This document shows, piece after piece, positions 922-59,289 of a stretch of 64,000 bases of DNA. Source of the stretch: a virus; the IMG/VR virus record IMGVR_UViG_3300030012_002034, positions 43,382 through 107,381 of that record; one strand, 5' to 3'. The notes under the pieces are model-generated. The model was not told where the DNA came from, ran no database searches, and saw only the letters and a program-made list of their open reading frames with translations. Numbering within the stretch: position 1 is the stretch's first letter; every line of letters begins with the position of its first letter. The position numbers were made by a program, and so were the translations under genes.

Positions 922-2763
922 TCAAGAACTGCAAGTCTTAGGGGTAGAACAATTACACGTTGAACAAGTACTCTGATTACAGCCGCAACTACTAGGTACT
1001 GTAGAACATGTATAATTAGGATCTATTAATGCTTGAAGTTCAATTAATTCTTTTTTAATAGTCCATTTATCAATTTCTTCCGGACAACAACTAGATATAC
1101 CATATCTTTTTTGTACTACAGACTTATAAAGTTGTTCTCCAAAGTTACATGATATCTTTTCATATTTTTCTATTGAACATGCTGGTGTATTATATCCTGG
1201 TTTAATTTTCTTAACAGGGTATACTTGAGCAGGACATGTCCAAGGAGAATCTGCATTTGCTTGAGTACAATTTCCATGAAATAAAGGTAAAGTACCAGTA
1301 TTCCATCTGATTACACAATACCTTTTACTTCTAGATTTAGCAGCAACAGATTCAGTAGTTTGTAAAATTCCATTACAATCTATATAAGTAAATGTAGCTG
1401 CTTCTGTTCCTTCATTATATATGGTTGAACATCTACATGCAAAATCTTTTAAACACGTTGCACAATCAGAATATTGTGAATGAAAAGTAACTCCTACAGG
1501 ATTTACAGGAACACCTGTAAAGGTAGAAACTGTAAAGCATTTTTCACAATTTTGAAGTTGAATTACCCTACCAACATAAGCTGATAAATCTGTGCTTGTA
1601 TATGTAATAGGATCAGCACCATCACATGATGTTAGTTTATAGTATGTTGTTTTACACTCTTGACATGTGTCAAAACCACCAGCTTGGATAACTACTGTTG
1701 TATCACTAGGAGGTGCTACATTTATTTCTTCAACCGTGTAGCATCCGCAAGGATCAGCTAACTCTACTACTTTATTTTTATACTCTGATAAATCCTGAGT
1801 AGTATATACTATTTCTTCTTCATTATCACAAGAAGTTAGTCTGTAAGCTATTGTAGGTTTGCAAGCCTCACAACTAACATAATCAAATCTAACTATAACA
1901 TCAATTGGACACTCACAATCACCAGACTGAATAGCTACAGTATAACATCCAGAATGACCTTCTATAGTAACTACATTACCTAAGTAAGCAAATAAATTCT
2001 GTGATTTACTATTTATTACAACACCTGTTGTACATTCTGTAAGTTTATAACAAATCTCAGGACACTTACCGTCTATACAAGCCGTACTTGTAGTAATAGT
2101 CCCAGAACCATCTGAATCAAAAACTGGTTTAGTTAAAGCACAAACTTGAACTGGAGCTAATACTCCTGAACGTGCTATATTATCACAACCAACATAACTA
2201 ATAGTTCCTGTTCCTGTAACTGTATAACATTTGCATGTACAAGCACTACAAGCAGAAGCATAAGTTACAGTAGTAGTTACTCCTGAGCATTCATTTGGTG
2301 ATTCTTGTACAAACCAACAATCTGAATTATCATTGATTGTTATAAATGTATTTACATAAGCTGAAAGATCAGTAATTGTAAGAAAGGAATTACCATCACA
2401 GTTTGTTAATCTAAAACAAGGAGTTACACAAGTAGGACATATTGAATAATCAGCATCTAGAGGTTGTTTATCTTCACATGTCATCTTACCAGTATAGCCA
2501 AAACTAGTATCTTGTAAGGCATCAAATGCTAAAACTGTTGCAACATCAGCTTGTTTTGCCTCAACATAATAACACTTGTTATTTTCAAGTGGTTTAGTTG
2601 ATCCATCAGTAGCTGTATAATTAGTAGTAGAACCTTGATATAAATATACAGAATCTGGACCCCAAAAAGGATTCCAACTAGATTTATCTAGTCTTACATT
2701 AAATTGAATTGATGGATCACAACAATCTGTTAATGTATAATATCTTATGGAGTTTGTTGACAT
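922..2763 (-). CDS. Cys-rich tandem-repeat virion protein
   Basis: 613 aa; at least 4 repeats of (Y/F)xLTxC...L..Y...C(Y/F/W)xV...CxxC; late block. Confidence 0.7.
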   Translation of the reverse strand: MSTNSIRYYTLTDCCDPSIQFNVRLDKSSWNPFWGPDSVYLYQGSTTNYTATDGSTKPLENNKCYYVEAKQADVATVLAFDALQDTSFGYTGKMTCEDKQPLDADYSICPTCVTPCFRLTNCDGNSFLTITDLSAYVNTFITINDNSDCWFVQESPNECSGVTTTVTYASACSACTCKCYTVTGTGTISYVGCDNIARSGVLAPVQVCALTKPVFDSDGSGTITTSTACIDGKCPEICYKLTECTTGVVINSKSQNLFAYLGNVVTIEGHSGCYTVAIQSGDCECPIDVIVRFDYVSCEACKPTIAYRLTSCDNEEEIVYTTQDLSEYKNKVVELADPCGCYTVEEINVAPPSDTTVVIQAGGFDTCQECKTTYYKLTSCDGADPITYTSTDLSAYVGRVIQLQNCEKCFTVSTFTGVPVNPVGVTFHSQYSDCATCLKDFACRCSTIYNEGTEAATFTYIDCNGILQTTESVAAKSRSKRYCVIRWNTGTLPLFHGNCTQANADSPWTCPAQVYPVKKIKPGYNTPACSIEKYEKISCNFGEQLYKSVVQKRYGISSCCPEEIDKWTIKKELIELQALIDPNYTCSTVPSSCGCNQSTCSTCNCSTPKTCSS

Positions 2764-3938: not shown

Positions 3939-5519
3939 TTACACACAAGGTGGGAATTTTGTTAAAGGTGTACATGCAGCTGTATCACATGTAATTGTTT
4001 CCATTTGAACATCACAGTTTCCACAACCTCCTAACCAAGTATTCATAAAGGTTTGGAAGTCAGTGTGGTTTTCATCACATATAATTTCAACTAAATATTG
4101 ATCATTATCAAATACTCCAGTTGGGTTATTATAACGTGGAACAGTATGTAAAATTTGGTAACGTACCCATGTATTTTTACTTCTAATTGATGCTCCTGTA
4201 TCATCAGTAAGAATATCATTTCCTTGAGTTATCTCACGGATTCTGATATCAGTTGCAAAGTGATTTTGACCATAAGATTCTGATAAAATCAAGTCTCTAA
4301 CCACTGTTTCACCTAGACCCATTGGAGAAACTGGTGCACATACTTCACTAACACAAATACCAGTGAACTCACATGGATTACCTGTGTAATCTACTTCAGA
4401 AACAAAAATCTTAATAGGCTGATAATCATATCCATCTAAGTATTGGAATGAACAATCTCCAAATTTAGTACTTACGTAGCATCCTTCAATTGTTAATCCT
4501 GCACACTCACCTGTAGTGTGACCAGTAGAAACATAATCTTTCCAGTTACCACCAATTGTAAATCCAGTTGGAGCTACTAAACCTGATGTGTCAACATCAT
4601 CAGCATACCATAATTTATTATCCTCTCCAGTAACAACTATTTGAATAAAGTCTTTCATAATAGGACTTGTAGTAAGTTGTTTAGCCCACTCAATAAATAC
4701 AAGTGTACTATCTACTGGCGTAGGATTTGTAGGATCTGGACAACAATCAGTAGACATTTCAACTGTTAAATATGCATTATGTGCAAGAAGATCTAATGCA
4801 GGCTCTCCTTTTAGATCTACTCTTAAAGAGTAAGTTTCATCACAAAGGAATTCTTGACAACAATCTTTAGATCCTTGTGTCATTGCAGCTGTATAAGTAC
4901 CATCTATTGAACCAGAAGAAGGTGTTCCTGCACCTAAGTCAGCTGCAGCAATAGACCAAGTAAGTGTAGTAGCAGGTAAACCATATCCTTGACCAGCAGC
5001 AGTAATAGTAACACTAGCAACAACACCACCAGCAACTACAACAGTAGCTAAAGCACTATTAGCTCCTGTAGAACCTGTAACTTTAACATTAGTATATGTA
5101 TTATTTGTTAAGCCGCCACCACCATTATCAACAATTGTTAATGCTTGAGTAACTAGTAAACCAACTGTGTCAGGAGTATACCCAACAGCAACAACATGAT
5201 TTTGTGCAGCACAGTCATCTATTCTGTAGAATTTGTGCACATATCTAGGGTTAATAAGTTTAGACTTATTAGTTTCTTTATATCCACCGTGGTGAGGTCC
5301 TACTTTATCTTTATCATAAAGTGATCCTGAAACTAATGTTAAGGGACAACAATCAGTTGGTGCTGACCCTATGTCAACAAGATTCCAATTCTTGTCAACA
5401 AAACCAAATTCACCTTTATCTAAGGTGTTTCCAGTTGTGCCTAAAAGGCCTTTTGCTTTTTCTACAAAGTCCTTGCTACCTAGCATGGTCTTCTTAAAAG
5501 CGTGATTAAAATAACTCAT
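3939..5519 (-). CDS. probable auxiliary capsid/structural protein of the crAss-like head module
   Basis: 526 aa; lies downstream of MCP and ring gene as in crAss-like phages; own terminator; internal Gly/Thr-rich beta insert. Confidence 0.5.
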   Translation of the reverse strand: MSYFNHAFKKTMLGSKDFVEKAKGLLGTTGNTLDKGEFGFVDKNWNLVDIGSAPTDCCPLTLVSGSLYDKDKVGPHHGGYKETNKSKLINPRYVHKFYRIDDCAAQNHVVAVGYTPDTVGLLVTQALTIVDNGGGGLTNNTYTNVKVTGSTGANSALATVVVAGGVVASVTITAAGQGYGLPATTLTWSIAAADLGAGTPSSGSIDGTYTAAMTQGSKDCCQEFLCDETYSLRVDLKGEPALDLLAHNAYLTVEMSTDCCPDPTNPTPVDSTLVFIEWAKQLTTSPIMKDFIQIVVTGEDNKLWYADDVDTSGLVAPTGFTIGGNWKDYVSTGHTTGECAGLTIEGCYVSTKFGDCSFQYLDGYDYQPIKIFVSEVDYTGNPCEFTGICVSEVCAPVSPMGLGETVVRDLILSESYGQNHFATDIRIREITQGNDILTDDTGASIRSKNTWVRYQILHTVPRYNNPTGVFDNDQYLVEIICDENHTDFQTFMNTWLGGCGNCDVQMETITCDTAACTPLTKFPPCV

Positions 5520-10432: not shown

Positions 10433-11701
10433 TTAAAATCGTTTAAAAAAATTATTTTTGTTTCTAGGAATACTCTTTTTCTTTGTAGTTCTAGAAGTTG
10501 TTTTCTTTTCCGGTGTTACTGAGGATGTTATCTTTCTTGAAGACTCAGTCTTCAACATCCTTACAGTTTTTTCATTTGCCTTATTACTTCCTTGACTTTG
10601 AATCTTACTTCTGTATCCTTGAGGATCTGCAAGTAACCAAAGTGCTTCCGCAATAAGATCATGTCTTGGTTCTACATATTGGTATTTCTCTAACAAGTGT
10701 CCCAATAAATTTGTAGGTTTACCTGACATAGAAGGGTAACTAGGTTGAACTAAACCTGTGTATAAAAGTCCTTGTGTCTTTTTATCTAGTTTTACCTCTC
10801 CTAATTTACCTACAGATAATGTATTATAAACATCATCCATATAAGCTCTTGCTGCATCTTCTTGTTGCTTTTTCATTTGCTCTTGTTGAGCTAACTGTCT
10901 AGCAACAATTTCTTCTTGCATTCTATCTAACTTAGGTTTAAACTGATTAGCTTTCTTTTCTAGCTTTTCAATATCTCTCCATGTATCTATCTCTTCTTGA
11001 ATTTCTTCAGGAGTTCCAAAGTTAGTAGCTGTTAAATACTGTCTTGCTATTTCAGCCTGGTGTTGCTCATTAGAAGGATCTAATTGAGTAACCTCTTCAA
11101 CGTGTGCAAGAGTTCTAAATAATCCCTTCATGTCAGTACCCCCATCTGCTACATATTTTGCAGCTATCTGAAGTTCTTGAGGAAGAGAGTTAAAAAATTC
11201 TTTAGGTGTATCCTGTCTAATTTTTTCTTCTCTTTGTTGAAAGTTAGCTTCAAACAATTCTCTAAAATCTTTTGCTGTATAGTCCTCTATAGGTTTATCA
11301 TCATCAAAAGGCATTAAAGAACCTTCTTCAATCATCTTATTAGCTAAGTCTGCAAGACCACTTTTATCCAGTCTACGTCTTCCTTTCCCTTCAGCATCTT
11401 CTTCCTGACTAATTAAATCATCTAGTTCAGCAATTGCTTCTTCTGTCTGTTCTGCTATTACTTCATCTGAAACAGGTTTTTCTTCTGTTTCAGTTTCTGT
11501 TTTTGCAGGCTTGTCAATGAACTCAGTGTCAAACGGCTTTTCAGTCGCTAAGACATTTGTTGGTTTTTCAGTTTCTTCTTCTTTTGGTAGCATTACATTG
11601 CTTGCATCCGGGCTTGCACCAAATATACTATCAATATCTACATCTACCTGACCTACCGTTGTAGTATCTTGTGTTTCCACATTAGTGTTTTCTTCACTCA
11701 T
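10433..11701 (-). CDS. acidic scaffold-like protein
   Basis: Very acidic, low-complexity N-terminal half; between portal and MCP; likely start MSEEN at 11701 behind a late motif. Confidence 0.65.
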   Translation of the reverse strand: MSEENTNVETQDTTTVGQVDVDIDSIFGASPDASNVMLPKEEETEKPTNVLATEKPFDTEFIDKPAKTETETEEKPVSDEVIAEQTEEAIAELDDLISQEEDAEGKGRRRLDKSGLADLANKMIEEGSLMPFDDDKPIEDYTAKDFRELFEANFQQREEKIRQDTPKEFFNSLPQELQIAAKYVADGGTDMKGLFRTLAHVEEVTQLDPSNEQHQAEIARQYLTATNFGTPEEIQEEIDTWRDIEKLEKKANQFKPKLDRMQEEIVARQLAQQEQMKKQQEDAARAYMDDVYNTLSVGKLGEVKLDKKTQGLLYTGLVQPSYPSMSGKPTNLLGHLLEKYQYVEPRHDLIAEALWLLADPQGYRSKIQSQGSNKANEKTVRMLKTESSRKITSSVTPEKKTTSRTTKKKSIPRNKNNFFKRF

Positions 11702-11730
11702 TTTTGTTGGTTTTAAATTACTGTTACTAT

Positions 11731-11741
11731 TAATATACAAA
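11731..11741 (-). promoter_or_regulatory. late-type motif TTTGTATATTA (1/5)
   Basis: Exact 11-mer 29 nt upstream of ATG 11701. Confidence 0.6.
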
Positions 11742-11801
11742 TTAACTTTAAAATAAACTTAAGAAATTTAAAAATTTTTGATAAAAATCTGCACTATATA
11801 G

Positions 11802-12074
11802 CTATTTTATTTTTTTATATAACTTTTCAAGCTCTTTTATATAAAAATTTCTTTCTTCTGATCTTACTAAAGCTATTTCTTTAATAAAGTTTTCTCTCTC
11901 TAAATGACATTGTTTTAAAAATTGTTCTCTTTCTTTATGCCATGTTTCACGTTCTCTTGTTGATCTATCAGATATCTCTTCAATTTTTCTAAGCAGCCAC
12001 CTCTCTCTTGTAATAGCATATACTACCCAAACACCAAGAACTCCGTATTGTGTAAGTATATCAAAGAATTCCAT
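11802..12074 (-). CDS. small membrane protein (N-terminal TM + coiled coil, BhlA/holin-like)
   Basis: ILTQYGVLGVWVVYAI hydrophobic segment followed by a charged helix. Confidence 0.45.
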   Translation of the reverse strand: MEFFDILTQYGVLGVWVVYAITRERWLLRKIEEISDRSTRERETWHKEREQFLKQCHLERENFIKEIALVRSEERNFYIKELEKLYKKIK

Positions 12075-14824
12075 TATTTCTCTTTATCTTTTTTAGATTT
12101 AGGTTCAGATTTATCAAATTGATTTTTATTTTCTCTAGCAATTTGTAATTGAGTTTGTGCTACATCTCTTTGAACTTGTAGTTTTTCTCTTTCAATAGCA
12201 TTTTTCTGGTTAGCTTGCATTTGCCTGTTAGATTCTTTTTGTCTAGCCATTTGAGTTTGAGTTTGATATTGTTCTGTTTTACGTATATCATCCATAGCAT
12301 CTCTATAGTCACTCATTTGATTTTGATTTATATCAGACATAGATCCATAACCCGCAGCTTTTATCTCAGCAATAAGAATATCTTTTTGTCTATCTTTCTC
12401 ATCTCTACCTTCTTCATATTCACGTTTAAGTCTTTCTTCTTCTGCTTTAGCTTGAATTTGTTGCTGTTGCATTTCTTGCTGCTGCTGTTGTTCTTGCTGC
12501 TGTTGTTGTCGTTGCTTTTCTTCAGAAGCTTTCATTACACTATTAAGATCAGCAATAGAATCTGATTGAACAATTTTACCAAGGTCATAAATACTAGCGC
12601 CAGTAGTATTGTTAGTCATTGCCATTTGCTTAAGTTGCTCAAGCACTGCTCGATGATTAGCATTAGTAGTTGAAAAGATATTTAAATCTCTCATTAACAA
12701 ATCAGTACCATTTATTTCAAAATTAACTTTTTCAGCAGCTGTTGTTATATAAGTCAATCTAGCAGATGGTTTAGTTGAATGATAGTACTGAGCTAAATCA
12801 GTTCTCATTTGATGAACTCTTGGCATTAAGTAATCACAATGCTGCATAAAATAAGTTTCTGTTTGAGCATATGATGCACTTACAGCTTGTTCTACTCCTG
12901 TTGCTGTAGTTTGTGCTATTTGCTGTCCCATTCTTTGAGGGTTAACTCCTACAACATCATAAGCTTGTTGTTTAAAGTGATTACCTAATTGAATTCTAGA
13001 CATAAGCCTATTAGTCTGAGATAGATCTAATTTTTGGAAATGCTGAAAGTTTAATGCATTTTCTGTATTTGTAATAGAAGTATCTAAAGGTAACATTTGG
13101 AAATCTTTCATAGCCACATACGCCTTAGCTAAATTACCTTTACCCCAATCTTCTCCTAATGAATGCCTAGGTAAAGTATTCTGATCTAACATTATTATAG
13201 TTCCTAACTCATCAACAAGTATATCTGCTATTTGATTATTAACCATATTATATCCTATCTGATATGGTTTCATCATATCTACTAATGAAGTAGATCTAGT
13301 ATTTCTATCTGAGAATACAGATCCTTCTACAGGAAGCTTGCATCCATACAAACTAGAATCTCCTTTAAATTGAAACTTAAGAGGACCTATATTATTTTTA
13401 TCAATACCTAAATAAATAGGATCTAGTCCTTCAGGGTTATTCATGCCCCAATAACTAGGAATGTTTGGACCAATTTTAACACCGCCCCATACTTCATTAA
13501 TCCATATCCAATCTATATGTTCTCCAAATACTAAATTATCTTTAGATTTATTTTTAAATAATCTAGTATCATATTGAGGTTTATCTGTAACTTTATATGC
13601 TTCAGTAATTATTTCATTTACTACTTCACCATTTTCTTTTATTTTAGTGAGATGTCCTACTTTTCTTTGAGACTTCCAGTATACTGTACAAACTCTAAGC
13701 AGGTCATTAGTACCATCTACATAATATTCTTCACCTTGTAATAATAATTTTTCTACAATATCATCACCATACATTGCCTGTGAAGAAGCCAATGATCTCC
13801 AAGCTAAAGATGGAGGATTGGCGTTTGCTTCATATGATTTAGTTGCATCATAGTATGTACCATCATTTTGATAACCTGTCATATTATATCCTACTGCTTT
13901 CATAGGATACACAGCTTCTAGTGCTTCTAATTGTTTTTCTGACATAAGATAACCATACTTATCAATTACATCAGCGCCTGTCATCATATCAATTTTACCT
14001 ACCCAGTTACCTTGAGATATATATCTAACATCAGGAGACTTGTGATAAAAAGTAATTAAAGGATTCCATAGTTCTACTTCATAATCATCCTCCATCATTT
14101 TCATATGCCAGAATTCTCTATCTGTGATAAGCATATCACGGAAAGCTCTTTCTTCTAATTCATCTAGTTTAAATCTTTCTACATCAACCTTATGCTGATG
14201 AGAAGCCCATTGCTCTACCATAGATCTATAATCTTTTTTAAAGAAAGATTCAATTTCTGGTAATTGCTTCAAAGCATCTGGAGCTAGTTGTTGTTGAGCT
14301 TCTTCAGATTCAGGGTCTAAACCTTGTTCTAATAGTGCAGTACCTATTTTTACTTGAGCATCTTGAAATAAAACTTCTTCAACAGCTTGTCTTTTTTGCT
14401 CAAGCATTTCATTATAAGAACCTTCATCAACTGCTCTATAAGTAAGTTTAGTTGCTCTTTTAGCAAATTCTGCTACAAGTACATTAACCACATTAGGAAT
14501 AATAGGATAAAACTTTAGTTCTAATGCTGTAACATCTTCTTTAGTAAGAATATCAATTATTTCAGCATACTCATTATCTTCCTCAACAATATAATCTGTT
14601 TTGTCTATAATACCTTTTGCAAGTTTATAATTTTTAGAAAGCCTTCTAGCATTTCTTTTAATTTGCTTTAGACCATTCCACTCTAGCCAGTCTATATTCC
14701 ATGCTGCCCACTCACCATCTTTATCTTTTGGAGATAAAAACTGTAAAGGTTGTGTTATATTTCCTATTCTATTATGTTCTGCTTTAGCTCCTTTTTTGAG
14801 CTGCATTGCGTTGAGGACCTGCAT
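12074..14824 (-). CDS. portal protein
   Basis: 916 aa directly after terminase; YPIIPNVVNVL motif; Gln-rich C-terminal coiled coil. Confidence 0.85.
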   Translation of the reverse strand: MQVLNAMQLKKGAKAEHNRIGNITQPLQFLSPKDKDGEWAAWNIDWLEWNGLKQIKRNARRLSKNYKLAKGIIDKTDYIVEEDNEYAEIIDILTKEDVTALELKFYPIIPNVVNVLVAEFAKRATKLTYRAVDEGSYNEMLEQKRQAVEEVLFQDAQVKIGTALLEQGLDPESEEAQQQLAPDALKQLPEIESFFKKDYRSMVEQWASHQHKVDVERFKLDELEERAFRDMLITDREFWHMKMMEDDYEVELWNPLITFYHKSPDVRYISQGNWVGKIDMMTGADVIDKYGYLMSEKQLEALEAVYPMKAVGYNMTGYQNDGTYYDATKSYEANANPPSLAWRSLASSQAMYGDDIVEKLLLQGEEYYVDGTNDLLRVCTVYWKSQRKVGHLTKIKENGEVVNEIITEAYKVTDKPQYDTRLFKNKSKDNLVFGEHIDWIWINEVWGGVKIGPNIPSYWGMNNPEGLDPIYLGIDKNNIGPLKFQFKGDSSLYGCKLPVEGSVFSDRNTRSTSLVDMMKPYQIGYNMVNNQIADILVDELGTIIMLDQNTLPRHSLGEDWGKGNLAKAYVAMKDFQMLPLDTSITNTENALNFQHFQKLDLSQTNRLMSRIQLGNHFKQQAYDVVGVNPQRMGQQIAQTTATGVEQAVSASYAQTETYFMQHCDYLMPRVHQMRTDLAQYYHSTKPSARLTYITTAAEKVNFEINGTDLLMRDLNIFSTTNANHRAVLEQLKQMAMTNNTTGASIYDLGKIVQSDSIADLNSVMKASEEKQRQQQQQEQQQQQEMQQQQIQAKAEEERLKREYEEGRDEKDRQKDILIAEIKAAGYGSMSDINQNQMSDYRDAMDDIRKTEQYQTQTQMARQKESNRQMQANQKNAIEREKLQVQRDVAQTQLQIARENKNQFDKSEPKSKKDKEK

Positions 14825-30072: not shown

Positions 30073-30090
30073 AGACCTCTCTGAATTGAT
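30073..30090 (+). promoter_or_regulatory. early motif RGAC(C/A)TCTCTNAATTRAT (1/5)
   Basis: AGACCTCTCTGAATTGAT. Confidence 0.7.
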
Positions 30091-30112
30091 TGTAAATATA
30101 AAACTTATAATT

Positions 30113-30250
30113 ATGATTTCAATTTATTTAATTAAGAGATATAATCTCACATTACCTTCTGACAAGGTCAAAGCAGTTATTGCCGGTGTATGTTTATCTG
30201 CACCAATAGTAATACCTACAGTTCTAGTACTAACCGGAATAATACTATAA
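30113..30250 (+). CDS. small early membrane protein (45 aa)
   Basis: Hand translation MISIYLIKRYNLTLPSDKVKAVIAGVCLSAPIVIPTVLVLTGIIL. Confidence 0.55.
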   Translation: MISIYLIKRYNLTLPSDKVKAVIAGVCLSAPIVIPTVLVLTGIIL

Positions 30251-30253
30251 GCC

Positions 30254-30475
30254 ATGAGATATAAAAGATTAAAACTAATAGTATTTAAGCATCTATGTTT
30301 CTTACTTAGTGTGTTATATATGGTAGCATCTATATTCTGCTGGATGGAAATAGCAGTTACTGAACCAAGATATACTACTGATGCAAGTCTAATAGTTGCA
30401 TTTGTAACAATGCTTCTTGCTGCTGTTTCCTGGTTAGGATTTATGGAATGTAGAACTAAACTACAGAAGCTATGA
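30254..30475 (+). CDS. small early two-TM protein
   Basis: 73 aa, two hydrophobic helices. Confidence 0.6.
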   Translation: MRYKRLKLIVFKHLCFLLSVLYMVASIFCWMEIAVTEPRYTTDASLIVAFVTMLLAAVSWLGFMECRTKLQKL

Positions 30476-30540
30476 ATGATATAGCTACTATTATCCTGGT
30501 ATCAATTCTGCTATACTCACAGTATAAACTAAATAATAAG

Positions 30541-30569
30541 TACGGAGACTAGATCTCTGTATTTTTTTT
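30541..30569 (+). terminator. intrinsic terminator
   Basis: TACGGAGA-CTAGA-TCTCTGTA + T8. Confidence 0.7.
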
Positions 30570-30587
30570 AGACCTCTCTGAATTAAT
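30570..30587 (+). promoter_or_regulatory. early motif (2/5)
   Basis: AGACCTCTCTGAATTAAT. Confidence 0.7.
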
Positions 30588-30611
30588 AGGGAACTTTAAA
30601 TTTATAAAATT

Positions 30612-30821
30612 ATGATATCCGCATTTATTATTGACATGATTAGAGAATATGAAAATGAATTAGATCTTCCGCAAGAAGAAAGATACACTGATAGTGATTT
30701 CTTCTATATGGAGATGCAACAAGCTGATGCTATATTACGCCAGCTTAAAGCAAAGATTGCAGAAGAACAGCACTATGCTGATCAGATGCTAATGATTCAA
30801 AGCATAATTTCTAAGTTCTAA
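30612..30821 (+). CDS. early hypothetical protein
   Basis: 69 aa between motif and terminator. Confidence 0.65.
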   Translation: MISAFIIDMIREYENELDLPQEERYTDSDFFYMEMQQADAILRQLKAKIAEEQHYADQMLMIQSIISKF

Positions 30822-30827
30822 TAAAGA

Positions 30828-30853
30828 GTCCTCTGTATAGAGGATTTTTTTTT
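30828..30853 (+). terminator. intrinsic terminator
   Basis: GTCCTCT-GTAT-AGAGGAT + T-run. Confidence 0.7.
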
Positions 30854-30856
30854 GGA

Positions 30857-30874
30857 GGACCTCTCTTAATTAAT
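30857..30874 (+). promoter_or_regulatory. early motif (3/5)
   Basis: GGACCTCTCTTAATTAAT. Confidence 0.7.
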
Positions 30875-30898
30875 AGTAACTTATAAATTATATATATT

Positions 30899-31207
30899 AT
30901 GCAAAATTTTTATTTAAAGTATGATTGCACACAGCTATCTAAAGGACATGGAATACATCGTAAAGGCCCTAATGCAATAGAAGCAAGTACAGTTTTGAAT
31001 GAGATTATACCATTTTATGCAAACTTAAAAAGGACACTTGAGTTCTCCAGAAAGCGGGGAAATAAACTTGCAGTACGTGTTATATCTAACCATGATAACT
31101 TCAGAGTTGTTGATATTGAATTAATAGGTGATGATTGGCACTATAAATGGAGGTTTGGTCTTGACATAGAACTATGGTCTTTCTTACCGGAAATACAAGA
31201 GGGTTAA
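30899..31207 (+). CDS. early hypothetical protein
   Basis: 102 aa. Confidence 0.65.
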   Translation: MQNFYLKYDCTQLSKGHGIHRKGPNAIEASTVLNEIIPFYANLKRTLEFSRKRGNKLAVRVISNHDNFRVVDIELIGDDWHYKWRFGLDIELWSFLPEIQEG

Positions 31208-31275
31208 TACCCTTTTGTTTTCCAACCAACTTGGGGAGCATATATGCCCGTTTGTGCAAAGGCGCAAGAGACTAA

Positions 31276-31319
31276 AAATTTTATTCTAAAATTTGGCTTT
31301 TAGACATCTCTTAATTGAT
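31276..31319 (+). promoter_or_regulatory. hairpin + early motif (4/5)
   Basis: AAATTTTA-TTC-TAAAATTT then AGACATCTCTTAATTGAT (31302-31319). Confidence 0.7.
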
Positions 31320-31349
31320 AGGAATTATTAATCATTTAAATTTACAATT

Positions 31350-31718
31350 ATGGCAAAGCCTAAATTTGAAAGCGTTACTTTAAGTAACGGCACACCCGCT
31401 AAAGTAGCGCAGGTATCAGCAGAGTTAATCTCAATTAATGAGAATGACATTTATGAAAACAAGAATGGTACTCAGTACCGCCTTTGTACAATCAAGTTTG
31501 ATAACGGTAATAAAGTTATGACTCCTGGTGCAATGATGTATGAGAGTAACTACCAGAAAGGCGTTACTGTCGGTAGCCATTATCTTGCAGAAATTACATT
31601 AACTGCTGATAATGACCCGCTATTTATTTGCTCTGCATTGTCTCAAAGACAGTCAGTATCTAACAGTGACTTTGATGTAGAAGTTACTGCTGCTGATTTC
31701 TCTGAAGCAGGCAAATAA
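31350..31718 (+). CDS. early protein, possible OB-fold ssDNA-binding protein
   Basis: Beta-rich, NKNGTQY hairpin, acidic tail; flanked by motif and terminator. Confidence 0.45.
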   Translation: MAKPKFESVTLSNGTPAKVAQVSAELISINENDIYENKNGTQYRLCTIKFDNGNKVMTPGAMMYESNYQKGVTVGSHYLAEITLTADNDPLFICSALSQRQSVSNSDFDVEVTAADFSEAGK

Positions 31719-31728
31719 ACCTACACAC

Positions 31729-31758
31729 AAAAGACAGACTAATACTCTGTCTTTTTTT
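31729..31758 (+). terminator. intrinsic terminator
   Basis: AAAAGACAGA...TCTGTCTTTTTTT. Confidence 0.75.
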
Positions 31759-31769
31759 CTACCTTAGAA

Positions 31770-31817
31770 AAATTCTTTATTCTAAAGAATTTGGCTTAAA
31801 GACATCTCTAAATTGAT
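31770..31817 (+). promoter_or_regulatory. hairpin + early motif (5/5)
   Basis: AAATTCTTTA-TTC-TAAAGAATTT then AGACATCTCTAAATTGAT (31800-31817). Confidence 0.7.
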
Positions 31818-31819
31818 TA

Positions 31820-32036
31820 TGTGTAGGTAGTGTTAACGGTTTTATAAGAAAACACGCAAGAGTTTAAAAGAACATGTAATATTTTACAAAGTTTTATAAA
31901 CATTTGTGTGTTGTTAACACAGTAGGAGTCAAACAACCCTTCTTTCTTAGGCTTAAAGCTTAAAAAAGAATTGTTATAGCTCATTATATATTATATATAG
32001 CTATTCTTTGGTTGACAATAGCTATTTGCCTACACA
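31820..32036 (+). ncRNA. putative structured ncRNA A (about 217 nt)
   Basis: Closing helix TGTGTAGGTA/TGCCTACACA; nested GTGTTAAC/GTTAACAC, ACACGCAAG/TTTGTGTGT, TGTAA/TTACA; no ORF. Confidence 0.5.
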
Positions 32037-32125
32037 CATTAGTCTATCTATCACTATATACATTACTTATGTAATCTCTTATAGTATCTTATATAGTTTC
32101 ATAGACTTATTCACCGGACTTAAAT

Positions 32126-32260
32126 AAAATAACAGCATTAGATGTAGGAGTGAAACTCTCATACCAACAATCTATAAAGTCTTGCATTAAAGCATGTAAA
32201 AGAACTTTAACTGACAGTACAATCTAAAGTAAATGACCTTAGTGGTATGGCTGTTATATT
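32126..32260 (+). ncRNA. putative structured ncRNA B
   Basis: Closing ATAACAGC/GCTGTTAT; internal TAGAT/ATCTA, GAGT/ACTC, TAAAGT/ACTTTA, TTGCAT/ATGTAA. Confidence 0.4.
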
Positions 32261-32325
32261 TATTCACCGGATTAATTCTATAATGGTTCGCAATTAAATA
32301 TTTATTAACCATTAAAATTTTTATT

Positions 32326-32535
32326 ATGAAAATTAAAATAGAATTAGAGATTACTGATACTCAACTTCAGAATGTAGACAATGTTAATACTCTTATGAGT
32401 TTCTTAGCTAATGATCTATATACTAAAGAACCTGATTTGTATAATTATATACATAGGCTCGGTGCAAACTGGGCTGATCAGCAGGCTAAAGAGTATCATG
32501 ATGCTCATTTTTATGACTGTGACTGCTATCGTTAG
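32326..32535 (+). CDS. hypothetical protein
   Basis: 69 aa with AT-rich leader. Confidence 0.6.
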   Translation: MKIKIELEITDTQLQNVDNVNTLMSFLANDLYTKEPDLYNYIHRLGANWADQQAKEYHDAHFYDCDCYR

Positions 32536-32599
32536 TAGTCATATGTCATTCACCGGATTAATAGTGTGTCAATAGATTGCACACTGTTATATTATTATT

Positions 32600-32678
32600 G
32601 GAGTGAGGGAGGACAGTTATACTTCGGTCACTGACTGGATACACAAACCCTGCAGGTCTTAGCCGTGTACCTCACTCT
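32600..32678 (+). ncRNA. putative three-way-junction RNA C
   Basis: GAGTGAGG/CCTCACTC; CAGTTA/TGACTG with C(UUCG)G loop; TACAC/GTGTA. Confidence 0.45.
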
Positions 32679-32706
32679 ATTAATTTAACAAATTAAATTA
32701 ACACTT

Positions 32707-32862
32707 ATGAAACAAATTACGCATTACTTATTTGCTGTACTCTTATTGGGTACACTTACTTCAGTATTTTCTTCCGGAGATTCATTCTCGCTTGGAAAGT
32801 CCTTAGTTATTTATGGATTTTGGGCGCTTATGTTATCTCCTATGACAATTAAAAACGTTTAA
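32707..32862 (+). CDS. small two-TM protein (51 aa)
   Basis: Hand translation MKQITHYLFAVLLLGTLTSVFSSGDSFSLGKSLVIYGFWALMLSPMTIKNV. Confidence 0.55.
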   Translation: MKQITHYLFAVLLLGTLTSVFSSGDSFSLGKSLVIYGFWALMLSPMTIKNV

Positions 32863-32867
32863 CTATT

Positions 32868-32990
32868 ATGAAAAAGATTATAATTACTCAAAAAGAAATC
32901 CAGGACGCTATGAAACATAGAGTTCAAAGGAACAAAAAAAAGTATTACCGGAAGGTAAAACACAAAGGTGCTTCTAAAGAGGCACAATGA
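32868..32990 (+). CDS. small basic protein (40 aa), ArfA-like motif
   Basis: MKKIIITQKEIQDAMKHRVQRNKKKYYRKVKHKGASKEAQ. Confidence 0.55.
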   Translation: MKKIIITQKEIQDAMKHRVQRNKKKYYRKVKHKGASKEAQ

Positions 32991-33049
32991 CATTTGGTGT
33001 TTATCTATAGCTTGCTATAGTATAAGCATCTCATGACCTTATGGTCATG

Positions 33050-33838
33050 CGGTTGCTCTCAAACCGTTAAGATAAACCAGTAATGGTATAAATCTGTAGT
33101 CGTCTTGGTAATAAGACTACGGAGATATGTATAGCTTGCTATATGTATTTTATAGAAGAGTATTCCAATATCCATGTAACGGCAGCAATAAATCCCACGG
33201 GTTTGTGAGTTGCATGGAGAGTATGACAGGCATGCTCTTGAGCTTAAAAGGCAATAAGAATTGGGATAGATATTGGTACTATGGTGTTGTCGCACTTAGA
33301 GCTGGTATTAGAATTTGTATTTAGAATGCTGTAAGAAATTACGTGTTCACATAAATATTTATTTAGTTAGTAGCCTTGACAAGCAAAAGCAGGTAGGAGT
33401 AGTAATCTAAACTTCCCAAAAGGAAGCATGATTACATAAACTCTAAGCGCCTTCTATCACTAACCTGAAACCTTTTTCAGCCATTAGATTGGCAAGTTTA
33501 ATTTAAATATCAAGTAATAACTTAAAAGCAAAATTAGTTTAGAGACTATTGTGATGCCACTAAAGGCAACAATGTTCTTATCCTTCTGCAATATGGAGGC
33601 ATGGATAGCTCGCAAGGCTTGCCATGAAGGAATCCAGTAGTATCTGTAGTGAGGGGACACCCTCTTTAGCTCGTAAGGCATGCGGTATGAAAGTGAACTT
33701 ATGTAAACAATAGTAGTGATGGCGGACATCTTAATCCGTGAACATGTACAGTACAAATTAGAAATAGTTTGTGTGAGATAGTTGGAGAAATCCTAATTAA
33801 TCTGTACGTAAAAGGTCAAGCTCTCAGCCTTTTTTTTT
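33050..33838 (+). ncRNA. large ornate ncRNA, GOLLD-like (about 790 nt)
   Basis: No credible ORF; dense hairpins with GUAA, GCAA, GAAA and G(CUUG)C loops; ends AAAAGG...CTCTCAGCCTTTTTTTT; size and 3' end fit my recollection of GOLLD. Confidence 0.6.
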
Positions 33839-33885
33839 ATATCAGAACAATTATTAATCAATTAAAGTTAAAGACGCATAAGCTT

Positions 33886-34350
33886 ATGAAAAAAGAATTA
33901 GCAATTATTGTAGATGTTGACGGGACGTTAGCAGATATGAGAGGTATTAGAGGACCTTTTGAGTGGGACAAAGTTCACCTTGATAGACCCCATCAAGATA
34001 TTATTGATCTTGTTAAAGATTTAGCAGATGCTGGTACAGATATAATGTCAGGTGATGCTTTAGCGGGAACGGAATACAAATATAAAATCATTATTACTAC
34101 AGGTAGAGATGGTGTTTGTGAACAAGCAACTAAAAAATGGTTAGATGACCATAAAGTACCTTATTATGATTTCTTTATTAGAAAAGCAGGTGACTTTAGA
34201 AAAGATAACATCATTAAGTCTGAGATCTATATGGATCATATTAGACCTAAGTATGATGTTAAGTATGTTATTGATGACAGAAACCAGGTTGTTGAAATGT
34301 GGAGGTCATTAGGTTTACGGGTGTTACAAGTAGCACCAGGAAATTTTTAA
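33886..34350 (+). CDS. HAD-family polynucleotide 3'-phosphatase (T4 PNK phosphatase-like domain)
   Basis: Start MKKELAIIVDVDGTLAD; TGR, R..GDFRKD..IK, DDR.QVV.MWR. Confidence 0.85.
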   Translation: MKKELAIIVDVDGTLADMRGIRGPFEWDKVHLDRPHQDIIDLVKDLADAGTDIMSGDALAGTEYKYKIIITTGRDGVCEQATKKWLDDHKVPYYDFFIRKAGDFRKDNIIKSEIYMDHIRPKYDVKYVIDDRNQVVEMWRSLGLRVLQVAPGNF

Positions 34351-58000: not shown

Positions 58001-58011
58001 TAAATTTGAAT

Positions 58012-59289
58012 ATGACAAAATCTCTAGGTAATCACATTTTGGTTGAGTTCATGAATTGTTCTCCAGAAATAATGAATGATGCTTCTGCAATTGAACAAAA
58101 CATGGTTGGAGCAGCTAAACTTGCTGGAGCAACAGTTGTCAATTCTACCTTCCATCATTTTTCTCCATACGGAGTTTCAGGTGTTGTTGTTATTGAGGAA
58201 AGTCATTTTGCAATTCATACTTGGCCTGAATATGGATATGCTGCAGTAGATCTATTTACATGTGGTGAAATAAATGCGTGGTTATCTTTTGATAATCTTA
58301 AAGAATGCTTTGGTGCACAATCATATTCTGCTATTGAAATGAAAAGAGGGTCTCTTAATTTATTAAAAAGAAATAATTTTAAAATTCCTAATACATCTAG
58401 AATAAAAGATAATCATAATAATTTAAATGTATATGCAAGAAACGTTTGGTTTACTGATAAAGATGAGAATCAAGCTTTGTCATTAAGATTTACCGGTGAG
58501 GTTTTTCATGATACCCAGTCTCCTTTTCAAAGAGTACGTATTTTAAAATCTTATAAATATGGTAAAATGCTTGCATTAGATGATATGGTTATGACTACTG
58601 AAAAAGATGAATTTCATTATCATGAGATGATTAGTCATCCTTCGGTCTTTATTCATGGAAATGTTAAAAATGTTTTAGTTATTGGAGGAGGAGATGGAGG
58701 AACAGTAAGAGAACTTTTAAGACATGAAGAAATTAAAAAAATCACCATGGTTGAAATTGATAATGAAGTTATTAATGCTTGTAAAAAACATTTACCTTTA
58801 ATAGCATCAGAGTTTAATAATCCCAGATTAAATTTAATTATTGATGATGGAATTAAGTTTGTAAAACTTGCTAAAAAAGAAACATATGATTTAATTATAG
58901 TTGATGGCTCAGATCCAGTTGGTCCTGCAGAAGGTTTATTTACAAAAGAGTTTTATGAAAATTGTTATAATGCTCTTTCAAAAAAAGGGATACTTGTAGC
59001 ACAAGGAGAATCTCCAAAGTTTAATGAAAATGCGTTTATAGTTTTAAACAAAACATTAAACAATATTTTTGGATCAAATAATACTGCTATATCTTTATTT
59101 TATGCACCAACTTATCCAACAGGAATGTGGAGTTTTCAGTATGGTTTTAAAGGTAATGTAGATTCTATCTCCTTATCCAAAAAAGGACAAATAGAGACAT
59201 TTGTATCCAAGCATAAATTATCTTACTATAATTATGAAATTCATCTTTCAAGTTTTGTATTACCTAATTTTATAAAAAATAAGATATAA
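58012..59289 (+). CDS. speDE: S-adenosylmethionine decarboxylase - spermidine synthase fusion
   Basis: N-terminal [16 protein letters not shown]|[10 protein letters not shown]...DLFTCG; C-terminal [35 protein letters not shown]. Confidence 0.92.

Follow-up and report, generated by a model that had tools for sequence, protein, structure and literature searches.

GOLLD is a family of large RNAs reportedly described by Weinberg et al. in 2009. Its genes often lie near tRNA genes or tRNA islands, and we know of no function or partner of the RNA. GOLLD RNAs are phage encoded and often exceed 800 nt, and in them a variable 5' domain is joined by a variable linker to a conserved 3' domain (10.1101/2024.12.08.627333). 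The GOLLD RNA that has been studied forms a protein-free multimeric cage, seen as a 14-mer by cryo-electron microscopy (Kretsch et al., bioRxiv 10.1101/2024.12.08.627333). According to a thesis relayed second-hand in the same preprint, GOLLD increases during lysis and ribosomes are pulled down with it (10.1101/2024.12.08.627333). Here we analyzed a 64-kb window, the right-hand part of the 107,381-nt IMG/VR virus record IMGVR_UViG_3300030012_002034 (completeness estimate, 91%), and describe a large RNA at 33050 to 33838 which, judged from its sequence, is a divergent member of the GOLLD family. It closes a 2-kb stretch of low coding density, below called the island, in which the initial annotation had seen four independent folded elements (A, B, C, and a GOLLD-like RNA) forming a decoy or sponge module. 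We consider it about 80% probable that the segment 33050 to 33838 is a genuine divergent GOLLD RNA and that the rest of the island consists of micro-genes, a leader, and a cassette zone rather than of further noncoding RNAs. The GOLLD family itself is already known; new here are the divergent clade, the context devoid of tRNA genes, and the conserved neighborhood.

The large RNA and its relation to GOLLD

The RNA lies in an 895-nt gap whose predicted folding, compared to shuffled sequences, is stronger on the plus strand (z = -5.1) than on the minus strand (z = -2.9). Two parts can be distinguished:

33050..33391, plus strand: predicted 5' domain of the GOLLD RNA, conserved and covarying over 33 homologues (helices 2-13)
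33392..33838, plus strand: predicted AU-rich linker and conserved 3' domain of the GOLLD RNA, with the terminal hairpin AAAAGG-UCAAGCUCUCAG-CCUUUU and a U-run; match to the Rfam model RF02032, covariation in helices 14-29

Diverged copies of the segment 33065 to 33838 were present in other phage contigs at 69 to 87% identity, and their position varied relative to the gene of a 40-amino-acid (aa) peptide, which precedes the RNA in the window. They were located with this peptide gene as an anchor, and approximately 50 metagenomic phage contigs were then collected from IMG/VR with two conserved patterns (related contigs bear L-numbers below, while G-numbers denote the phage genomes used in the comparison of GOLLD and the peptide). 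Full-length homologues of the RNA were detected by nhmmer in approximately 45 of them. For alignment A4, which comprises 33 distinct homologues and has a mean column identity of 58%, RNAalifold predicted a consensus of 142 pairs, 118 to 119 of them with compensatory double changes. The proportion of paired cells in A4 was 94.9%, compared to 69.9% in column shuffles (0 of 500 reached the observed value) and 35 to 46% if the 3' partners were slid by 1 to 3 columns. The covariation score was 0.717, compared to 0.236 in the column shuffles and 0.09 to 0.135 with slid partners. Since the consensus energy was far lower for the forward sequence (-119 kcal/mol) than for the reverse complement (-42 kcal/mol), and since G-U pairs made up 15% of the paired cells, we conclude that the RNA is read from the plus strand.

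GNRA tetraloops cap many helices of the RNA. At its 3' end is a hairpin that covaries and whose loop, UCAAnCWCUCAG, is conserved; in the window, nine T residues come after it. An open reading frame (ORF) of 65 aa is located inside the RNA (33127 to 33324), but its frame is split in relatives, and therefore it is not a gene. In summary, a large RNA with a conserved structure is located at 33050 to 33838 on the plus strand.

The Rfam model of GOLLD, RF02032, covers the conserved 3' domain only. Applied to 33000 to 33900, it matched 33392 to 33830 over model positions 1 to 416 (64 bits; E = 4e-16), and a GOLLD match was obtained again when the whole genome was searched (E = 1e-17). Five distant homologues were also searched with the model, and L099 and L102 reached 100.8 bits (E = 2.5e-25) and 76 bits, respectively, both over model positions 1 to 416. 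Altogether, the homologues scored 68 to 132 bits, the best match being that of G004. By this covariance-model match and the covariation, the RNA initially annotated as GOLLD-like is upgraded to a divergent GOLLD.

Further likenesses to GOLLD are a CAAAAG loop, AAAGCAAAA in the linker, GCUCGCAAGGC, GNRA-capped helices, a terminal loop with UCUCAG, and a UAC...GAAA...GUG helix that matches the model. The window's RNA, 789 nt long and phage encoded, also has two domains and an AU-rich linker of variable length (approximately columns 490 to 565 of A4). It differs from described GOLLD RNAs in its 5' domain, which is well conserved within the clade, and in its linkage to a pair of micro-protein genes; a literature search turned up no report of such a pair for GOLLD. 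Moreover, searches of 50,697 GenBank phage records by blastn and tblastn gave no match to the island, the GOLLD RNA, two relatives, or the peptide, showing that the clade has no cultured relative there. ROOL RNA (RF03087) is similar in being a large, ornate RNA of phages and prophages that forms an RNA-only cage and occupies a similar genomic niche, but its sequence and structure are unrelated. Neither the window nor a second large RNA of sibling phages (class-2 RNA, see below) gave a ROOL match, narrow Rfam scans included. By likeness to the studied GOLLD, the window's RNA would fold into a multimeric cage without protein.

Several points weigh against the GOLLD assignment and against its extension to an explanation of the whole island. 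The score of 64 bits is far below the RF02032 gathering threshold of 150 bits, which no member of the clade reaches. Rfam scans of the whole window at the gathering threshold and of 6 kb at E ≤ 10 missed GOLLD. The phage genome is without tRNA genes, none having been found in the whole 91%-complete genome. Finally, the extreme folding energy of element A is left without an explanation. Because the 0.9-kb scan gives the GOLLD match, we regard the negative results of the earlier wide scans as filter artifacts. The subthreshold score is read as divergence, 150 bits being a curation cutoff and not a biological feature. Since all members of the clade stay below 150 bits, they probably represent a divergent GOLLD lineage which routine annotation would miss; approximately 45 divergent members that standard Rfam annotation missed are added to the family in this way. 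The clade comes from uncultured marine phages. Its contigs include TARA Oceans assemblies, which are the source of the contigs near-identical to the window, and misbinned copies are mostly found in metagenome-assembled genomes (MAGs) of Flavobacteriales.

The presence of GOLLD in a phage without any tRNA gene speaks against a role that depends strictly on phage tRNAs; the association of the family with tRNA genes is frequent rather than defining. In the relatives L102 and L099, tRNAs are located near GOLLD, and in L102 they form a five-tRNA array (11695 to 13207) 1 to 3 kb downstream of it. The more distant GOLLD phage L118 harbors a phage transfer-messenger RNA gene (10809 to 11188), and the window's phage has none. 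In L106, a weak match to the tRNA model (1005 to 1076, minus strand; 23 bits; E = 0.28) was detected approximately 250 nt downstream of GOLLD. It shows an acceptor stem, a T-arm with GGUUCGAAUCC, and a CCA end, and may be a tRNA-like mini-helix.

Other elements were found directly at the ends of GOLLD in relatives. An element of approximately 80 nt abuts the GOLLD 5' end in nine of them (L079, 3745 to 3835; L089, 1015 to 1106; L087, L076, L106, L095, L121, L109, and L097; alignment A10) and is absent from the window. It consists of a covarying hairpin with the loop UGAGAAU, an invariant CCGUGGCUUAU, a variable hairpin, and AUUAGUGUCUA. Known ribozymes were rejected as an identity, there being no Rfam match, and the element may serve in processing, as a small ribozyme, or as a promoter-leader. 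In a subclade comprising L099, L123, L132, and others, another conserved block lies before GOLLD. Directly at the 3' end of the L132 GOLLD, a twister-P1 ribozyme-like match was detected (5001 to 5052, minus strand; 56.8 bits; E = 4e-10; gathering score, 67), suggesting ribozyme-defined 3' ends in one subclade.

The low-coding island upstream of the RNA

Genes for a portal protein, a large terminase, a major head protein, and a DNA polymerase assign the window, which has a GC content of approximately 32%, to a tailed phage. The major head protein gave tblastn matches of 22 to 29% only (a Leptolyngbya phage, the Cellulophaga phages phi4:1 and phi17:2, and one gut crAss-type phage). Genes are directed leftward up to approximately 29.9 kb and rightward from approximately 30.1 kb. 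On the dominant strand, ORFs with 60 aa or more account for 90% of the window, and the three largest gaps inside it (607, 591, and 444 nt) are all located within 31719 to 33768. The low coding density described in the initial annotation was thereby confirmed, and its three small credible ORFs (69, 51, and 40 aa), each of which has diverged homologues, are real genes. Between the preceding gene and the RNA, the following features were distinguished in addition to the genes of the 51- and 40-aa products, which are listed further below:

31731..31758, plus strand: terminator-like hairpin with a T-run closing the unit of a 122-aa ORF, from sequence reading; kept in L002, L158, L159, and L161
31800..31817, plus strand: fifth and last copy of an 18-nt early promoter-like motif, from a motif search; the island begins here
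31818..32042, no strand assigned: element A, AT-rich and hairpin-rich, right after the 18-nt motif, delimited by its fold z-score
32102..32122, plus strand: repeat copy 1, TTATTCACCGGA..., a cassette junction; homology with L002, L158, and L159 stops at 32122
32124..32259, plus strand: ORF-less 137-nt cassette flanked by repeat copies 1 and 2, belonging to element B; absent in L161 and L162; z = -2.2
32255..32276, plus strand: repeat copy 2, ATTCACCGGATTAAT, a sequence repeat
32326..32535, plus strand: ORF69, encoding a small protein; in L106, a homologue of 46% identity follows GOLLD immediately
32541..32562, plus strand: repeat copy 3, ATTCACCGGATTAAT, a sequence repeat
32559..32597, plus strand: hairpin followed by UUAUAUUAUUAUUG; z = -3.1; 89 to 97% conserved in L001, L073, and L002
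32598..32682, plus strand: element C, a weak predicted stem-loop; z = -1.4 (plus) and -0.9 (minus); near-identical relatives only
32996..33049, plus strand: two strong hairpins from the stop codon of the peptide gene to the GOLLD 5' end; z = -5.2; kept in near-identical relatives only

The 18-nt motif AGACmTCTCTnAATTrAT was found in five plus-strand copies at 30073 to 31817, and seven matches were obtained in total versus 0.69 expected. Each of the five copies precedes a small ORF or element A, in some cases directly after a terminator-like hairpin. Upstream of GOLLD elsewhere, the motif is confined to the closest relatives of the window and missing from other GOLLD phages, and we regard it as a candidate early promoter specific to the phage. 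GOLLD would be an early transcript that starts from the motif at 31800 or from a nearer, unrecognized promoter and ends at the terminal hairpin and U-run.

The noncoding stretches of the island lie behind this promoter-like motif and fold better than shuffled sequences (31818 to 32325, z = -6.0; element A, z = -7.1; 32996 to 33049, z = -5.2). These two observations speak for a coordinated module, in which four independent structured RNAs (A, B, C, and GOLLD) together with helper proteins would serve as decoys or sponges against host defense. However, the minus strand of element A folds just as well (z = -6.96). Its copies in IMG/VR are near-identical only, and a metagenome scan added one 87%-identical homologue (L161/L162). 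When the 79 predicted pairs of element A were inspected in L161, 53 were unchanged, 1 was compensatory, 9 were one-sided compatible, and 16 were broken, and substitutions amounted to 19% at paired and at unpaired positions alike. The L161 counterpart still folds stably; hairpin-richness persists and the specific structure does not. On this comparison, element A was rejected as a conserved RNA fold, the test being a weak one with a single diverged homologue.

Elements B and C reach z-scores of only -1.4 to -2.3 (pieces of B, -2.2 to -2.3) and were dropped as structured RNAs, since they are no better than shuffles. What is conserved in element B are sequence blocks rather than pairings, and segments of it are absent or replaced in close relatives. 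All three elements are confined to near-identical phages or to short sequence blocks, and none of them matched an Rfam family. Thus, only one of the four proposed folded elements, GOLLD, has a conserved structure, and the decoy or sponge idea found no specific support; an anti-defense or host-takeover role is purely speculative, and we consider such a multi-RNA module very unlikely. The result also calls for caution before noncoding RNAs are deduced from strongly negative fold z-scores in AT-rich early regions of phages.

Two smaller hairpin regions were looked at. The hairpin preceding UUAUAUUAUUAUUG spans 32559 to 32589, and its flanks differ among L001, L073, and L002; together with UUAUAUUAUUAUUG, it may resemble a terminator or promoter element more than a separate noncoding RNA. 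The two hairpins at 32996 to 33049 occupy 59 nt up to the first GOLLD helix, and their CTATAGCTTGCTATA core is repeated within GOLLD at 33126 to 33143. For the product of ORF69, no Pfam or PHROG family match was obtained.

The dedicated repeat reported in the initial annotation was corroborated: TTCACCGGA has exactly three copies in the 64 kb, at 32110, 32263, and 32549, i.e., always within 32110 to 32557, and two of the repeat copies share the identical 15-mer ATTCACCGGATTAAT. In L161 and L162, copy 1 is joined directly to the sequence past copy 2, so that 32124 to 32259 is missing and a single repeat copy is left. In L002, L158, and L159, the segment 32123 to 32585, including ORF69, is swapped for approximately 395 nt of unrelated sequence. 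Since the indel and replacement junctions coincide with the repeat, we conclude that the repeats bound exchangeable cassettes.

These clean junctions at direct repeats are also compatible with a role of the segment 31720 to 32330 as DNA, namely, as a replication origin or a recombination hotspot, which would leave GOLLD as the only RNA element. In line with such a role, the segment has the lowest GC content of the neighborhood (26 to 29%), its fold propensity is strand symmetric, and CCTACACACA occurs twice in direct and once in inverted orientation around element A. On the other hand, neither iterons nor initiator-binding arrays were identified in it, no replication initiator gene is adjacent, and the minimum of the cumulative GC skew falls at approximately 30100 to 30250, at the strand switch, rather than at 31720 to 32330. 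Furthermore, the segment lies just downstream of the promoter-like motif and would be transcribed anyway. We therefore regard a DNA-level role as unlikely and prefer the combination given at the outset. Upstream of a divergent GOLLD, the island would hold the genes of the 69-, 51-, and 40-aa products, a leader rich in AT and hairpins that follows the last early promoter-like motif, and a short hypervariable zone with cassettes bounded by the 15-nt direct repeat.

Micro-protein genes beside GOLLD

Two genes are located between element C and the hairpins that precede GOLLD:

32707..32862, plus strand: ORF51, encoding a hydrophobic membrane-type micro-protein, first gene of a conserved pair; homologues of 39 to 42% in L089, L095, and L109
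32868..32990, plus strand: gene of the 40-aa lysine-rich peptide, DUF7230-like, with the ArfA-like motif RVxRNKKKYYRKxKH; family alignment A5

The pair of ORF51 and the peptide gene travels beside GOLLD. In all 21 distinct contigs examined that contain both, the peptide gene and GOLLD are on the same strand and 19 to 2199 nt apart. The peptide gene precedes GOLLD in the window, L079, and L084 and follows it in the remaining contigs; in two long contigs, examined beyond their truncated loci, it also adjoins GOLLD, at distances of 685 nt and 1.2 kb. In five lineages (window, L077, L089, L095, and L109), ORF51 is the gene immediately before the peptide gene, with 5 to 90 nt in between.

The family of the peptide has more than 30 members and is represented by 27 clusters in the protein database. 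DUF7230 was matched by 27 of 32 family members (best E = 9e-6), and a literature search for this domain found nothing. The initial annotation had proposed an ArfA-like peptide. ArfA, alternative ribosome-rescue factor A (PDB 5H5U, 5U4I, and 5MDV), recruits RF2 to ribosomes that have stalled on nonstop mRNA. A profile of A5 (32 members) matched ArfA chains in the PDB marginally, with E = 0.046 to 0.06, and ArfA was the only natural family matched. The sequence KKRVQRNKK---KYYRKVKHK was aligned to ArfA residues 26 to 50, which we take to be the tail lying in the mRNA channel, and a weaker likeness was seen at the N terminus (T-x3-I-x-D-x-A). In an ESM-feature search, the ArfA cluster was found at 0.90 with 202 shared features. 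The Pfam ArfA model (PF03889) matched neither the peptide (hmmscan, E ≤ 10) nor any part of the genome in a six-frame search. The hhalign comparison of the peptide family with ArfA gave a probability of 12% (pairwise E = 0.0025); the ArfA sequence used agrees with the profile output in two segments, residues 6 to 12 and 26 to 50.

Like ArfA, the peptide is short and lysine-rich. However, it has 40 aa instead of 72, is devoid of the GKG insert and of approximately 11 residues between the two motifs, and fits DUF7230 better. Furthermore, its hairpin follows the stop codon, whereas arfA contains a hairpin inside the reading frame. A literature search for phage-encoded ArfA gave nothing relevant. 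Thus, the proposed likeness to ArfA has marginal support from the profile match and the ESM features, with no match in Pfam and a low probability in hhalign; judged from these comparisons, the chance that the peptide has a true ArfA-like ribosome-binding function is roughly one in three.

Because of the second-hand ribosome pull-down and the neighbor with the ArfA motif, we suggest, tentatively and by analogy, that the target of GOLLD might be the translation apparatus of the host, in concert or in parallel with the lysine-rich peptide, and that GOLLD would not be a decoy or sponge for defense systems. This suggestion is rather unlikely to be correct, and it is weakened by the nature of what it is drawn from, namely, a marginal ArfA similarity, synteny, and a second-hand observation. 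Even less probable is that GOLLD, ORF51, and the peptide constitute a functional unit on host ribosomes for which the class-2 RNA substitutes in siblings. In such a unit, the cage could capture or park ribosomes while the peptide would occupy the mRNA channel. If this were true, ORF51 and the peptide would be the first protein partners of GOLLD and would open a way to its function.

A partnership is not obligate, as the GOLLD phages G001, G004, and G005 are without the peptide, while the complete phages G006 to G010 (40 to 288 kb) have the peptide and no GOLLD. Peptide-bearing MAG contigs, mostly binned as Flavobacteriales-type Bacteroidota, are also without GOLLD. Such separate occurrence would be explained if GOLLD and the peptide gene were neighbors by the inherited gene order of one clade, uncoupled in function, and the peptide were a general nucleic-acid- or ribosome-binding micro-protein. 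In line with this explanation, GOLLD phages with higher Rfam scores are devoid of the peptide, and both genes reside in small early regions rich in short genes. It is at odds with the constant neighborhood (same strand and at most 2.2 kb apart in 21 of 21 contigs, even if order and spacing vary) and with the replacement of GOLLD by the class-2 RNA beside the same peptide gene in L001, L005, and L077. On balance, shared gene order is a plausible explanation, for and against which the weight seems about equal. The recurrent neighborhood, comprising the peptide, the membrane micro-protein, and in siblings the class-2 RNA, provides candidates for what GOLLD works with.

The class-2 RNA is an unrelated structured RNA of approximately 590 nt in the place of GOLLD (L001, 4375 to 4975; L005, 3840 to 4425; L077, 370 to 975; also L155, L157, L163, and L164). 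It follows the same peptide gene in sibling phages, precedes the same phosphatase gene in L001 as GOLLD does in the window, and has its own terminator hairpin. In seven contigs at 79 to 84% identity, 157 pairs were predicted, with 97.8% paired compared to 37 to 48% in slid controls, and 50 pairs showed compensatory types compared to 3 to 10 in the slid controls. An assignment to ROOL or GOLLD was rejected, since a narrow Rfam scan was without a match. The class-2 RNA may be an undescribed class of large phage RNAs.

The downstream phosphatase and a distant gene

The gene following GOLLD was annotated as encoding an RNA end-healing phosphatase:

33886..34350, plus strand: stand-alone PNKP-type HAD phosphatase; PF25109, E = 3e-46; phrog_505, E = 1e-53

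The gene product is a clear homologue of the phosphatase domain of PNKP, as in the T4 Pnkp tRNA-repair pathway. However, it comprises the phosphatase domain only; the kinase domain, an RNA ligase, and tRNA were not found in the 91%-complete genome. A partner kinase or ligase was searched for with PF13671 and PF09414, and neither matched in the 107-kb record. PF09511 did not match there either, a search that was uninformative because its control was also blank everywhere. In related phages, the neighbors of the phosphatase gene differ, and it is not consistently beside GOLLD. Therefore, the assignment as a PNKP-type phosphatase was retained, while an RNA end-healing pathway is not supported, since no kinase, RNA ligase, or tRNA was found. 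Elsewhere in the window, 58006 to 59289 encodes a 427-aa protein, the N-terminal domain of which resembles S-adenosylmethionine decarboxylase (phrog_3125, E = 5e-28).

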